64,000 nucleotides of DNA from a bacterium (lineage in GTDB: Bacteria; UBP14; UBA6098; B30-G16). The first letter of the stretch is position 1; the number at the start of each line of letters is the position of its first letter. Below the pieces are notes generated by a model. The model was not told the DNA's origin. It ran no database searches and saw nothing but the letters and a program-made list of their open reading frames with translations. The stretch covers positions 5,718 through 69,717 of the forward strand of contig JAUWMV010000010.1 in NCBI GenBank assembly GCA_030613005.1. Direction: 5' to 3'. Positions 32,906-36,927 of the stretch are shown in pieces. Made by a program: the position numbers and the translations under genes.

Positions 32906-33907
32906 ATGAAATCACCATTGCTCTTTACTGGCAAAACCGACTATGCATATGCGTCAGGTGTAATAAGAGGTCTCGAGAATTACCTTCTTGGTCGAAGTGA
33001 ATATCAGAAGTTAATAGATTCCGATCCAGATAGTATAGACAATGTTTTGGCAGAATTTGGATATTCGAGTAGCGAGAAAGATCCTGAGATAGCGCTCAGT
33101 CTTGCAACAGAGAAACTGTTCGAAACAATTGATAAATTATCTAAAGGGGATAAAATAGCCGATATCTGGAAAGTTAGAGCCGATTTCTCGAAAATTTCTG
33201 CCATTGTTAAATCAATACTTTTAGACACTGAACCACCGGAGTTAGTAAATTGGGGATTTCTCAACTCTGAAGAGCTCAGCAGAGAGATTTACTACCATTT
33301 CGATCCCGAAAAAAAATGCTCGCTTCCGGTTCATTACATTAAAACAATAGAGAGAGCACAATCAAATTTCAAAAGCCATAAAACAACTCTTTCTGTGGAT
33401 ATTGCTGTGGATAACTCATTTTCTGATTATGTGAGTACTATTATTCCGAGAAGTGAGTATTTTAAACGATTTTGGAGTTTTTATGTGGACTGGTGGAATG
33501 TTAAGGCTTTCGTTCGAATCCGGAAAGCTAAATTGTCGTCAAGCATATTTTATGATACATTTAATGCTGCTGGAGATATTCCACTTAGCATATTTACTGA
33601 CGCTATGGAAAGCGATAGTGAGCGATTATCAACGCATTTTATGCATACAGAATACGGAAAAGGTTTACAAGACGTTATTAAGCAAGCATTTGAGGGCATG
33701 CTTATCCCACTCGACAATTATTTCCGAGGGAAACTTCTTGTACACTATAAATATACACGGTATTGCCTTTACGGTCTCGAGCTCCTTTTAGCATATGAAA
33801 GCATAAAACTCGAGGAAATAGCAATACTAAGAACAATTATCCGAGCCAAGAAAGCTCGATTACCTGTCAATAAACTTAAGGAGGTAATAAACTTTGCCTT
33901 GGAATAA
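32906..33907 (+). CDS. V-type ATP synthase subunit C (d subunit)
   Basis: N-terminal DYAYASGVIRGLENYLL and overall ~330-aa helical protein resemble NtpC/AtpC of V/A-ATPases. Confidence 0.65.
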   Translation: MKSPLLFTGKTDYAYASGVIRGLENYLLGRSEYQKLIDSDPDSIDNVLAEFGYSSSEKDPEIALSLATEKLFETIDKLSKGDKIADIWKVRADFSKISAIVKSILLDTEPPELVNWGFLNSEELSREIYYHFDPEKKCSLPVHYIKTIERAQSNFKSHKTTLSVDIAVDNSFSDYVSTIIPRSEYFKRFWSFYVDWWNVKAFVRIRKAKLSSSIFYDTFNAAGDIPLSIFTDAMESDSERLSTHFMHTEYGKGLQDVIKQAFEGMLIPLDNYFRGKLLVHYKYTRYCLYGLELLLAYESIKLEEIAILRTIIRAKKARLPVNKLKEVINFALE

Positions 33908-34223
33908 ACTTGCAGCAATAGGAGATTTCTCCACAGTTTTCCCGTTAAAGGCAATCGGTATCGAGGTGCATCCTGTGGACGATAATGAAGATGTGGCAAA
34001 AATTCTTCGTAATTTAGCGATAAGCAAAGAGTTCGGTATTATATTCGTAACAGAGAGCCTATTGAAACCTGCACAGGAAGTTATGAACGAGTTCTTAGAT
34101 AAAGAGATGCCTGCAATAATCACAATCCCGAGTATTAGTGGCTCTCAGGGGTTAGGAGTATCGCGAGTTCGCGAGATAATGAAACGTGCTGCCGGTCGCG
34201 ATATTATGGCTGAAGAAGACTGA
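33894..34223 (+). CDS. V-type ATP synthase subunit F
   Basis: ~109 aa. LAAIGD...GFxxAG-like N-terminus and IPS...G pattern of V-ATPase F. TTG start with AAGGAGG Shine-Dalgarno 8 nt upstream. Overlaps the C-subunit stop. Confidence 0.6.
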   Translation: MPWNKLAAIGDFSTVFPLKAIGIEVHPVDDNEDVAKILRNLAISKEFGIIFVTESLLKPAQEVMNEFLDKEMPAIITIPSISGSQGLGVSRVREIMKRAAGRDIMAEED

Positions 34224-34290
34224 CTTCATTAATTCTTCCTAAATTTCACTCCTGAATATTATCCTTTGAAAATTGATCTTGGAAGTATTG

Positions 34291-34385
34291 TTGTATGCTC
34301 CCCCCTCATCCTAAATCCTTCTCCCCGAGGAGAAAGACTTTCCATGTTGTCCTTCGTCTGGTTGTCCTGGTCGAATTCACCGAGC
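34291..34385. repeat. Copy A of ~85-95-bp hairpin-containing repeat (CCCCTCATCCTAAATCCTTCTCCCCGAGGAGAARGACTTT..CATGTTGTCCTTCGTCTG..TCCTGGTCGAATTC...)
   Basis: Near-identical to copy B at 35881..35975. Shares its 3' 32 nt with partial copy C at 34972..35010. Contains an 8-bp stem CCTTCTCC/GGAGAAGG with a CCGA loop. Confidence 0.85.
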
Positions 34386-34580
34386 TGCTTTGTAGGATAA
34401 ATTTTAGAGCTGTTGTTTCTCATCAGGTGTTATCTCTTTTCGAAATTTTCTATAATATTTAATAGCCATGCCTATGATCCATATAATATTAAAACCTAAA
34501 CCCCAAAATAAAATTCTTAAATCGTTTTTTAAGTATAATACCGAAAAAACTGAAAAGTAAATAAATATCAATTGGTATAT

Positions 34581-34817
34581 CTAAAAGATAGGCACAGCCA
34601 CTGTTTTAAACATATCCTTTGTTTTTGAAGCAAATTTAATCATCATAAATAGCAATACTGGTGAAATTAGAAAAAATCTTAAAATTGCGTTTTTTACAAA
34701 ATCTTCTCTTGGTAAATGTTTGTATGGGGAGCACAATACCATTAAAATCCACATCAAACATAAAATATAAATAGTAATGTATTTTCTTTTGTTAGAAATC
34801 TGTTTTCTTTTATTCAT
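34581..34817 (-). CDS. Hypothetical small membrane protein (2 predicted TM helices)
   Basis: Strong AAGGAG Shine-Dalgarno before the ATG. Hydrophobic segments. Confidence 0.4.
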   Translation of the reverse strand: MNKRKQISNKRKYITIYILCLMWILMVLCSPYKHLPREDFVKNAILRFFLISPVLLFMMIKFASKTKDMFKTVAVPIF

Positions 34818-34835
34818 AGCATTTCTCCTTGAATT

Positions 34836-34890
34836 ATGTCCCTACTTAAATTTTTAATAATATAATTATCTTTGTTTCAAGTAGGGACAT
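34836..34890. repeat. Perfect 12-bp inverted repeat ATGTCCCTACTT / AAGTAGGGACAT separated by a 31-nt AT-rich spacer, immediately 5' of the 34581..34817 gene
   Basis: Read directly. Arms at 34836-34847 and 34879-34890. Confidence 0.8.
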
Positions 34891-34971
34891 TTTACTCTGT
34901 AATTTAATCCTACTAAGACATACTTTATTTCGAAAAAATCCTTCTCTTGCACCAATGATATCGTTTCCACT

Positions 34972-35010
34972 CGTTGTTGTCCTGGTCGAATTCGTCGAGC
35001 TGCTTTGTGC
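34972..35010. repeat. Partial copy C of the islet repeat (TTGTCCTGGTCGAATTCGTCGAGCTGCTTTGTG)
   Basis: Matches the 3' portion of copy A at 34358..34390 with 2 substitutions. Confidence 0.7.
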
Positions 35011-35107
35011 TGTCGAAATCGAAACCGGAGTCGCGGGAACCTGTTTCATAGTTGCGAAGGTTTCCAAGAAAGTCTATGTTCTCATGATGAAGCATTTTTC
35101 ATCGTCA

Positions 35108-35395
35108 TTATAGTATGAATTCTTGCTTTACGCCTTCAACTACTCTAACTCTCTTTACTGTCATAGGTCTATCCCATCTAGAAAATCTGTTGCGAAAATC
35201 CCAATAATATGCTTCTACTATTTTATTATTTTCAACAATAAAAGTGTCAACAAATGTATAAATATAGTATTGTCTTAACTTACCTTTGTAAAACTTACTA
35301 TTTCTATAAACATAAGGATGTTTACTGAAACTGATAAGGGTATAACCTCCTTTGAATAAATCAGTTCGAAACCCATGCTTTATGAAAATATACAT
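35108..35395 (-). CDS. Hypothetical basic protein; may be a frameshifted continuation of the 35380..35757 ORF
   Basis: ORF only. No Shine-Dalgarno. Its ATG lies inside the last codons of the upstream ORF (AAATAAATGTAT). Confidence 0.2.
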   Translation of the reverse strand: MYIFIKHGFRTDLFKGGYTLISFSKHPYVYRNSKFYKGKLRQYYIYTFVDTFIVENNKIVEAYYWDFRNRFSRWDRPMTVKRVRVVEGVKQEFIL

Positions 35396-35757
35396 TTATT
35401 TGAATCTGTTATGTCGTTTACATGAGTAATCGATTTAACATAAACAGAGGGATTATATGATCTTACAAATTTCTCCTCACCAGGCTTCCCAATCCAAAGA
35501 GAGTAATCACCACCATATCCACCATTAAATATAATATCTCTATTTCGAACCTGAGCTCTGATACCTTTGCAAACATCCTCGAATGCTAATTCATTGAGTA
35601 AATTCCAAGATGGTATAATCATGTTTACAAACCTTGGTATTGCTGTCATACATATAATTACTATAAATAGCATTGAAGTAAATATTGCAATTAGGATCAT
35701 AAAATAAATCCATCTCGCAACAACACATCTGAATATAGCATTAATACATGTATTCAT
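35380..35757 (-). CDS. Hypothetical protein with N-terminal TM helix
   Basis: AGGGGAA Shine-Dalgarno 4 nt before the ATG. N-terminal hydrophobic helix then a ~90-aa soluble region. Confidence 0.4.
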   Translation of the reverse strand: MNTCINAIFRCVVARWIYFMILIAIFTSMLFIVIICMTAIPRFVNMIIPSWNLLNELAFEDVCKGIRAQVRNRDIIFNGGYGGDYSLWIGKPGEEKFVRSYNPSVYVKSITHVNDITDSNKCIFS

Positions 35758-35880
35758 TTAAGTTCCCCTATTTAAGACTTACTAAATGCACGAATTTTTA
35801 TAATCACTAATTATTTTAACAACATTATTTAAAGAGCCAATTTCTTTCATCAACAAATAAACCAATGTCAAAGTAGTTTG

Positions 35881-35975
35881 AAATCACCTCCCCTCATCCT
35901 AAATCCTTCTCCCCGAGGAGAAGGACTTTTCATGTTGTCCTTCGTCTGATCGTCCTGGTCGAATTCGTTGATGTG
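35881..35975. repeat. Copy B of the islet repeat
   Basis: ~90% identical to copy A over ~85 nt including the hairpin. Confidence 0.85.
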
Positions 35976-36022
35976 TAAGTTTTTGCTGTGGTTTAATTAG
36001 TATCTCGATCCAAGTAATTAAT

Positions 36023-36289
36023 TTACTTTTCATCTATTCCCATAAACCATTTCGGATATTTAAAACGCATCACTATCTGTATAATAATGAGACCACTGAG
36101 ATATAGCACAATACATAAGGATAAGGAAAATTGTTTGAATGAGGTATATTTATCACCTGTTAAATAACTGAATATAGTAGATTTTTCTAACATAAATACA
36201 AAAGAAGAATACAACACAATTATACCAAGAAGGATGTAAAAAAGAATAAGGCGAATTATGCTCCTGGTTTTATTAATGCTATCCACCAT
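36023..36289 (-). CDS. Hypothetical small membrane protein (2 TM helices)
   Basis: ORF with two hydrophobic segments. Weak Shine-Dalgarno. Confidence 0.3.
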   Translation of the reverse strand: MVDSINKTRSIIRLILFYILLGIIVLYSSFVFMLEKSTIFSYLTGDKYTSFKQFSLSLCIVLYLSGLIIIQIVMRFKYPKWFMGIDEK

Positions 36290-36436
36290 CCTGCTTTACA
36301 TTTTTCACTCAAATCTCTAATATTATACATATATTCATTTAAATTTGCAAATAAAAACAATTTAATTTGAGTTTTACTCCCTGAAATAAAAATTGTGGTG
36401 GAAATCTAAATTAAAAATTTAATAAATTGTATTCAT

Positions 36437-36489: not shown

Positions 36490-36927
36490 ATGAGAGAACT
36501 TTTGCCACAAATCGATAACATAATAAGTCGAATTGTCGAGCAAAATGGTGGTGAATTGGTGGAGATTAGTGTCGTCGGTCGAGATAAAACTTCAATTCTA
36601 AGAGTATTTGTTTGCAAACCAGGTGGAATTAACATCGGAGAAATCTCAACACTGACAAAAAAGATTTCAAAAGCTCTTGACGAAGCCGATATAATTCCGC
36701 ATAATTATCTCTTAGAAGTTTCATCACCAGGTCTTGACAGACCACTCAGAACTATCCGGGATTTCGAACGAGTGATATCCGAGAATGTCAGAATAGTACT
36801 TCCAGATGGCAAAACGCATGAGGGTACATTAGTCGAAGCCGACCAAGATACAATCTCATTAGAAACAGAAAGTGAATCAATCCTAATATCACTCGATGAA
36901 ATATGCTCAGCAAAAATTATTTATTGA
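36490..36927 (+). CDS. rimP: Ribosome maturation factor RimP
   Basis: VSSPGLDRPL motif. Conserved position upstream of nusA. AAGGGGGA Shine-Dalgarno before the ATG at 36490. Confidence 0.85.
   Translation: MRELLPQIDNIISRIVEQNGGELVEISVVGRDKTSILRVFVCKPGGINIGEISTLTKKISKALDEADIIPHNYLLEVSSPGLDRPLRTIRDFERVISENVRIVLPDGKTHEGTLVEADQDTISLETESESILISLDEICSAKIIY

Follow-up and report, generated by a model that had tools for sequence, protein, structure and literature searches.

A BoxC/PIT-type triplex motif closes an intergenic repeat unit, a probable recombination substrate, in a strain-variable cassette islet of an uncultured bacterium

We describe an intergenic repeat in a 64,000-nucleotide stretch of DNA from an uncultured bacterium (assembly GCA_030613005.1, contig JAUWMV010000010.1, positions 5,718 to 69,717; hereafter the window). 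The repeat is probably a non-coding spacer that follows each cassette of a strain-variable islet, has a 3' end of the BoxC/PIT/triplex-motif type, and serves at the DNA level as a substrate for recombination or instability. BoxC and PIT are earlier names of the E. coli motif that Holder et al. (2015, PMC4666352) call TMECO, an intrastrand triplex motif of class II (purine motif). A preliminary description of this DNA had presented the repeat as a novel family built around a hairpin, and had offered three explanations: a recombination site, a duplicated gene 3' end left behind by insertions, or a cis-regulatory RNA element. The novelty stands only in part. The hairpin and its 3' tail can be assigned to a published, ubiquitous motif class, and only the ~45–160 nt part of the unit upstream of them is lineage-specific. 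In the sequences compared, only the window lineage has the composite unit in its cassette setting.

Three copies, A, B and C, had been recognized in the window (Table 1). The near-identity of A and B is confirmed: a repeat search aligns 96 ungapped nucleotides at 86% identity (34283-34378 and 35871-35966), and the core reaches 94.8% over 77 nt (34302-34378 and 35890-35966; blastn E=9e-31). The stem-loop CCTTCTCC-CCGA-GGAGAAGG had been ascribed to every copy. It is exact in B and carries one mismatch in A (GGAGAAAG), but C has none. No further site occurs in the 64 kb at up to three mismatches, nor in 100 shuffled sequences. The proposed extension of the stem to about 12 bp holds on the minus strand, where the fold of the copy B/A hairpin gives 12 pairs if G-U/G-T wobbles are counted, and the repeat search found no inverted repeat beyond this stem and none flanking the repeats. 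Copy C had been described as a remnant of the distal third of the repeat. It does share 33 nt with A (34361-34393 and 34976-35008, 94% identity), but this segment is only the 3' end of a longer block that begins directly after the stop codon of a cassette gene, here called X, and that resembles the long form of the unit on a related contig. We also considered whether C is a full unit with a decayed motif and rejected this, as the support consists of an exact 11-nt relic, and over its whole length the tail aligns no better than shuffled sequences do (255/1000).

The motif consists of three blocks on the minus strand, TCCTTCTCC-TCGG-GGAGAAGGA-TTT-AGGATGAGG (whole 34-mer TCCTTCTCCTCGGGGAGAAGGATTTAGGATGAGG). 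A pyrimidine block is followed by a complementary purine block and by a second block of G, A and T that can lie antiparallel on the purine block through G*G:C, A*A:T and T*A:T triplets, so that the strand should be able to fold either as a hairpin or as an intrastrand triplex. The class II definition (ITxF, Holder 2015) requires 5' pyrimidine, purine and 3' reverse-Hoogsteen blocks on the same strand, stems of 6–15 nt, loops of 1–6 nt and at most one mismatched triplet, with these same three triplets allowed. Both copies fall within it, B with all nine triplets and loops of 4 and 3 nt, A with a single mismatch. No other class II site was found in the window, and 20 shuffles yielded no GC-rich site. 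Both window copies (two in 64 kb) fall outside credible genes; TMECO elements of E. coli are always intergenic (PMC4666352).

The geometry of the window motif, 9-4-9-3-9, agrees with the 9-(3-6)-9-3-9 of TMECO. However, its sequence, TCCTTCTCC N4 GGAGAAGGA N3 AGGATGAGG, departs from the TMECO pattern CCCTCNCCC N3-6 GGGNGAGGG N3 GGGNGAGGG, and no TMECO-type site is present in the window at up to three mismatches. The departure amounts to a single triplet, altered in all three blocks together from C:G*G to T:A*A. The hairpin and 3' tail thus read as a new sequence variant of the BoxC/PIT/intrastrand triplex class, and we infer that the relevant structure is the triplex rather than the hairpin.

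The motif is widespread outside the window. One genome per species was scanned with the hairpin-plus-tail pattern that the motif shares with the whalefall-1 RNA family (see below), and metagenomes were scanned with the exact 21-mer GGAGAAGGATTTAGGATGAGG. The genome scan returned at least 120 matches against about 30 expected by chance (our own estimate), and the matches listed span many phyla, among the taxa being Verrucomicrobiota, cyanobacteria, Alphaproteobacteria, Bacteroidota, Chloroflexota, Serratia, Pseudomonas and Akkermansia. The commonest form among the genome matches listed is YCCCTCTCC-TTGG-GGAGAGGG-NTA-GGGTGAGGGG. The exact 21-mer is present in at least 120 metagenome contigs (L127-L246) with GC contents from 0.32 to 0.72 and in five viral contigs (L247-L251); it appears in no paper of the searchable literature. 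Among the matches listed it is almost always preceded by AAGTCCTTCTCC and a loop of 2–14 nt. The left, lineage-specific part of the window unit occurs in none of the genome or metagenome matches listed.

The preliminary description proposed covariation as a check on the hairpin. A signal is present, but it is three-way, joining duplex and third strand, and not that of a simple RNA hairpin. At the position that separates the window motif from the E. coli type, the genome matches listed comprise 62 sites with C:G*G, eight with T:A*A and about eight that are discordant. Among the metagenome matches listed, an extension of the duplex (GCCC...GGG) is coupled with (T/C)GGG in the third block at 36 of 38 sites, whereas the 66 sites with an unextended duplex never show it, and high-GC copies lengthen all three blocks jointly (GCCC...GGG with TGGG). 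These counts span many lineages, yet the sites are not phylogenetically independent and kinship was ignored. The pattern supports selection on the three-block structure.

One metagenome contig, L133 (Ga0307990_1023919), carries eight matches on its minus strand between positions 11 and 1996 and shows a different organization. It contains tandem arrays of a 33-nt unit, GGAGAAGGATTTAGGATGAGGGCTTTCCCTTTG, in which purine and third-strand blocks follow one another head to tail, each array after one complete motif. The window has no such arrangement.

Evidence for recombination comes from the relatives of the islet. Look-ups of exact proteins recovered six independent related contigs, which carry nine further copies of the unit, and three unitigs from the window's own sample. 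The motif block is 88–98% identical across all eight motif-bearing copies, and the block preceding it (mid block) is 89–97% identical in five long copies. However, the flanks of this conserved core are grouped differently on its two sides. The 5' flanks group L003 with the first copy on L125 (copy a) and L252 with L253, whereas the 3' flanks group A with L125 copy a, B with L252 and L253, and L003 with the second copy on L125 (copy b). The differing groupings indicate that flanks have been reassorted across the core, and L125 copy a, which joins the 5' flank of L003 to the 3' flank of A, records recombination within the core itself. Homology between units begins at five distinct 5' positions and ends at one constant 3' position, GGATGAGGG; nested 5' ends with a constant 3' end are the expected trace of conversion tracts that start at the motif.

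Changes of other kinds are seen at the same units. The short units of L252 and L253 differ from the long form by a 125-nt deletion whose junction lies at a CATCATG/CAACATG microhomology. On L125, from a sister metagenome-assembled genome (MAG), copy a is followed by a gene for a 187-aa membrane protein where the window has ORFs of 55 and 78 aa, and then by copy b at the contig end; small indels directly follow the motif in a qualitative comparison. L253 (Ga0311295_1489821) is a contig of 985 nt holding one X cassette and one short unit, with an exact terminal direct repeat of 141 nt (1-141 and 845-985), and is either a tandem cassette duplication or a circular form. The same-sample unitigs break or begin within the repeats (L124 ends at 34324, L126 starts at 35893, and L254 corresponds exactly to 35919..34312), which confirms the order of the islet and shows that the frameshift in the window copy of X is present in the reads. 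With its flanks reassorted and the cassette beside the V-type ATPase (V-ATPase) subunit F gene differing in the sister strain, a recombination site is the best supported of the three explanations first offered.

We propose that the structure-prone, GC-rich motif and the ~45 nt before it would provide homology between cassettes that are otherwise unrelated. This segment is the sole sequence that the unrelated cassettes have in common, which makes it the candidate substrate. Homologous recombination, one-sided gene conversion and slippage deletions at the units could then add, remove and reshuffle cassettes. The motif might also set these events off, if replication forks stall or break at its hairpin or triplex, and would in that case stimulate rearrangement itself, beyond supplying passive homology. 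TMECO loci in E. coli show more rearrangement between strains than control loci, and the single strand of TMECO forms a triplex in vitro (PMC4666352).

Several observations weigh against this proposal. A stable triplex was undetected in double-stranded DNA and by in vivo footprinting (Holder et al., PMC4666352). Every lineage-specific copy of the unit comes from one islet type in close relatives, and recent common descent rather than function may account for its conservation. RecA recombination of the ordinary kind, between any 80-nt repeats, would leave the same mosaics and require nothing special of the motif. The eight local motif copies all point the same way, with the G-rich strand as the sense strand of the cassette and the motif 3' of the gene, which a role at the RNA level predicts equally well. 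Lastly, AAGT 5' of the pyrimidine block is kept at 93 of the 103 metagenome sites listed and pairs with ATTT through a G-T wobble, which fits a 12-bp hairpin with an RNA-like G-U pair and is left unexplained by the triplex model.

The last two points also favour an RNA-level element, in which the 12-bp hairpin at the 3' end of the minus-strand cassette mRNAs would protect them from exonucleases, as REP elements do, or would terminate transcription in both directions where the V-ATPase operon and the islet genes converge. Such a role is unlikely. The stem of 12 bp includes G-U on the minus-strand RNA, and the C-to-U change in copy A preserves a G-U pair on that strand only. On the plus strand, where a weak terminator had been suspected, B is the only copy to pass a terminator scan (its sequence is identical in the sister-strain copy beside the V-ATPase F gene); A, the copy positioned to terminate V-ATPase F transcription, fails it. 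The minus strand has no U-tract after the hairpin (AGGAUGAGGGG), and a T-rich tail on the C-rich strand accompanies just 22 of the 101 metagenome copies listed. No clear orientation bias is seen in the family at large, the upstream gene lying on the same strand in 43 cases and on the opposite strand in 35 (133 metagenome copies listed, with crude gene calls). PIT/TMECO elements lack promoter and terminator activity in E. coli (PMC4666352), and a hairpin alone leaves the covarying third block unexplained. The original suggestion of a cis-regulatory RNA or terminator is therefore weak. Two more specific DNA-level readings carry less weight than recombination at a shared substrate. A cassette-shuffling system with no dedicated recombinase, in which the motif at the 3' edge of each cassette would stall or break replication so that one-sided gene conversion or template switching swaps orphan membrane-protein genes at a fixed site, is in our judgment rather improbable. 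If true, it would give BoxC/PIT/triplex motifs, a puzzle since the 1990s, their first natural mechanistic role, and would explain the three-block covariation across phyla. We regard as improbable a site-specific system, in which the unit would be the attC-like 3' end of a cassette and a recombinase encoded elsewhere would insert and excise mobile cassettes by strand exchange where the motif stops on its 3' side. Homology does have a constant 3' limit, GGATGAGGG, in four independent flank types, each cassette comprises small, promoterless-looking orphan genes followed by the unit, and L253, with one cassette, one unit and terminal direct repeats, may be a circle or a tandem copy. However, the 5' ends of the unit are nested rather than constant, the R/L boxes and GTTRRRY of attC sites are lacking and the stem falls well short of theirs in length, the islet is surrounded by core housekeeping genes, and the motif occurs singly, with no cassette arrays, in hundreds of unrelated genomes. 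Mobile-element explanations were likewise rejected; there is no tRNA at the islet, no inverted repeat flanks the repeats, and no integrase or transposase was found among the 40 window ORFs scanned.

A conserved small-protein family (54–68 aa, such as secreted peptides that keep a leader ...KQLGEFDQDDQTKDNMKSPSPRGEGFRMRG but vary at the C-terminus, with membrane-protein partners) is very improbable, although the reading frames can suggest one. The 54-aa minus-strand ORF at 34259..34423 that had been reported in copy A exists, frames are also open in C (56 aa), L001/L002 (68 aa) and L003 (65 aa), the C-termini vary past GFRMRG, and gene callers predict two of these ORFs. The claim that all three window copies share one frame applies to A and B, but C has only ...KQL-EFDQDN in common with them. 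Copy B has no in-frame ATG, GTG or TTG. L125 copy a has an in-frame TAG and a frameshift, yet is 89–98% identical to the other copies over the core blocks, and in the short units, which are 125 nt shorter, the motif is read in another frame that stops after 14 codons (a 14-aa ORF). Variable sites in the 81-nt core fall on the three codon positions as 4:5:5, with three clearly synonymous changes (and two mixed codons at the block edges) against four replacements and one stop. The copies thus lack the pattern expected of a small protein or of a precursor of a ribosomally synthesized and post-translationally modified peptide, namely an unbroken ORF with its start codon in every functional copy and a bias to synonymous changes. 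The 'SPSPRGEGFRMRG' portion is what the DNA motif gives when translated, and in many phyla that motif lies between genes; the E. coli-type motif similarly gives PLLGERVRVRG. No islet ORF has a match in Pfam, NCBIfam or PADLOC. Nor is a duplicated gene 3' end supported: the 54-aa ORF, compared with 5.8 billion proteins, matches two ORFs of 65–68 aa only, no longer parent gene is found, and the frame is broken or shifted in several copies. A parent gene for the peptide was rejected on the outcome of this search. The plus-strand ORFs of 18 aa (A) and 5 aa (B) behind a Shine-Dalgarno sequence are as first described, but their difference in length shows that they are not conserved, and they are incidental. 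By the available alignments the peptide-like frames are likewise incidental by-products of the DNA motif.

Membership of the whalefall-1 small-RNA family (RF01762; Weinberg et al. 2010, PMC2864571, filed as an sRNA) is extremely unlikely. At Rfam gathering thresholds the window contains two tRNAs only, and the sole non-trivial matches of the repeats are below threshold, on the minus strand of both copies, scoring 19.9 and 17.2 bits where gathering requires 37. The matched part is the hairpin CUCCUYGGGGAG with the tail AGGRUGAGG, and genuine family matches (43–74 bits) do occur among the loci found by the shared pattern. However, the second stem-loop is missing from the window copies, which have 5 nt where the family has 24, and the likeness is better explained as two variants of one triplex-type DNA motif.

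The genuine whalefall-1 matches are themselves of interest. They lie at 1925-1980 and 2180-2232 of L025, at 2968-3023 of L064, at five sites between 2392 and 3076 of L117, and at 4928-4980 of L005. The hosts are Balneolaceae MAGs and an Inquilinus-like genome that was deposited as 'Mycobacterium sp. KBS0706', which shows that the family extends beyond whale-fall metagenomes. Each site has a hairpin like that of BoxC/triplex motifs and a AGGGTGAGG tail, with a second hairpin inserted between them. Comparison of the two suggests that whalefall-1 may be a variant of the BoxC/triplex DNA motif class and not an sRNA.

Table 1. Features of the islet and of related contigs (window coordinates; handles beginning with L denote related contigs)
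Feature	Position	Strand	Description
AT-rich islet	34224..36426	.	2.2 kb; GC 0.31 against 0.36 in the flanks and 0.51 in the repeat cores; all ORFs on the minus strand
V-type ATPase subunit F	33894-34223	plus	left neighbour of the islet
rimP	36490-36927	plus	right neighbour; start of rimP-nusA-infB
88-aa predicted membrane-protein ORF	36023..36289	minus	first islet cassette, upstream of copy B
Copy B, mid block (GAATTCGACCAGGAC...AACATG) and triplex-type motif	35890..35966	minus	5'-truncated; peptide frame without a start codon
Copy B class II purine-motif intrastrand triplex motif	35892..35925	minus	Y TCCTTCTCC, TCGG, R GGAGAAGGA, TTT, H AGGATGAGG; 9/9 triplets allowed
X-family cassette gene	35108..35757	minus	N-terminal transmembrane helix and ~170-aa orphan domain; 1-nt frameshift gives ORFs of 125 aa and 95 aa
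Copy C, the long unit's 5' two-thirds	34976..35134	minus	159 nt; 92% identity to L001 582-739; no hairpin
Possible purine-block relic of a decayed motif	34936..34946	minus	downstream of C; exact 11-mer GAGAAGGATTT; surrounding alignment not significant
78-aa and 55-aa predicted membrane-protein ORFs	34404..34817	minus	cassette between C and A
Copy A, mid block and motif	34301..34393	minus	final unit of the islet; adjoins the 3' end of V-ATPase F; orthologue of L125 copy a
Copy A triplex-type motif	34304..34337	minus	one mismatch, in the pyrimidine block (TCTTTCTCC)
Long unit	L001/L002		~200 nt between two X paralogues; from the stop codon of the upstream gene (ATGCTTCATCATG...) to the motif
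Short unit	L252, L253		125 nt shorter; ATGCT(T/A)CATCATG fused directly to the motif
Sister-strain units	L125		sister MAG GCA_030620455.1 with identical V-ATPase F protein; copy a where the window has A
Further unit	L003		5' part different

The cassettes of the islet encode orphan proteins. The X gene is intact in the related contigs (213–214 aa), and its family comprises five clusters only among 1.84 billion representatives. The frameshift lies at 35380-35395 of the minus strand, where the window reads TTTTCATAAAGC and L001, L252 and L253 read TTTTTGATAAAAC. The same frameshift is found in the independent same-sample unitig L254, which excludes an error in the window and leaves a real pseudogene or a variant within the population. 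In P0008, a protein of 1675 aa among the representatives, 11 separate stretches match X residues 44–95; the short segment that follows the transmembrane helix of X is therefore also used in other proteins, as a module repeated in tandem. The related contigs yielded no homologue of the 78-aa and 55-aa cassette. Just 3' of copy B (35866-35882, minus strand), and in the same way in L252 and L253, the motif leads directly into GGAGGTGAT, a perfect 9-mer resembling a Shine-Dalgarno sequence, followed by a conserved segment of ~50 nt with TTGACA that lies upstream of the X gene. The two may be the expression signal of the next cassette.

The V-ATPase genes beside the islet (32906-34223) comprise only the C (AC39) and F subunits, upstream of which is a gene for an ABC substrate-binding protein on the opposite strand. 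The islet and rimP occupy the usual place of subunits A, B and D, and the scanned ORFs include no other subunit; it seems that the islet interrupts or splits the operon. The remainder of the window is core chromosome (L13, S2, EF-Ts, AlaRS, NusB, SSB, Ddl and others), and several of its proteins carry sorting domains of the type IX secretion system (T9SS).

For this window the result removes a false lead, as the peptide frames and the start-codon mini-ORFs arise from a DNA motif and the hairpin is not a new RNA. It also bears on the function of the BoxC/PIT/triplex class, since one 21-mer variant is common to organisms of 32% to 72% GC. In the window lineage the motif marks the constant edge of recombining cassettes, which supports a link between such motifs and local genome plasticity.

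BoxC and PIT elements are reportedly known from work by Bachellier in the 1990s and by Hoyne and Maher in 2000. The window motif resembles BoxC, PIT and TMECO in its order on one strand (pyrimidine block, loop, purine block, 3-nt loop, reverse-Hoogsteen block, with blocks of 9 nt), in being GC-rich relative to the genome, with local copies that are highly identical and lie between genes, and in loci that differ between near strains with small deletions beside the motif. It differs from TMECO in its blocks (TCCTTCTCC/GGAGAAGGA/AGGATGAGG against CCCTCNCCC/GGGNGAGGG/GGGNGAGGG, with T:A*A for one C:G*G). It is also unlike the class as a whole in being embedded in a longer lineage-specific unit, in having its local copies in a single orientation 3' of a cassette gene with no pairing in inverted A/B configuration, and in its host, a low-GC (0.37) uncultured bacterium with T9SS-type sorting domains that is neither a proteobacterium nor a cyanobacterium. 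The likeness to whalefall-1 RNA is confined to the CUCC-UYGG-GGAG hairpin and the AGGRUGAGG 3' tail; the second stem-loop is absent, the scores are 17–20 bits, and the window evidence points to a motif acting at the DNA level.

REP and BIME elements of enterobacteria and pseudomonads stabilize upstream mRNA and are hot-spots of rearrangement. Like them, the window repeat has short, GC-rich imperfect palindromes that are intergenic and stand at gene 3' ends, as REPs often do. However, the GTAG/GTGG head is missing, and the bases in front of the stem are AAAAGT (minus strand) or CTAAAT (plus strand); no RAYT or other Y1 transposase was seen in the scans of window ORFs, and the third covarying block is one that REPs lack. 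Integron attC sites are imperfect palindromes of 57–141 nt with R''/L'' and L'/R' boxes and a GTTRRRY crossover site, found with an integron integrase or in attC arrays. The islet is like attC/CALIN arrays in having a structured repeat 3' of each small, mostly orphan cassette gene and in its strain-variable content. In contrast to attC, the repeat has no long inverted repeat, no R''-L''/L'-R' boxes, no extrahelical bases and no GTTRRRY at the edge of the unit, its stem is just 8–12 bp, and no integrase is encoded among the ORFs scanned; its nested 5' limits argue for homologous rather than site-specific exchange.

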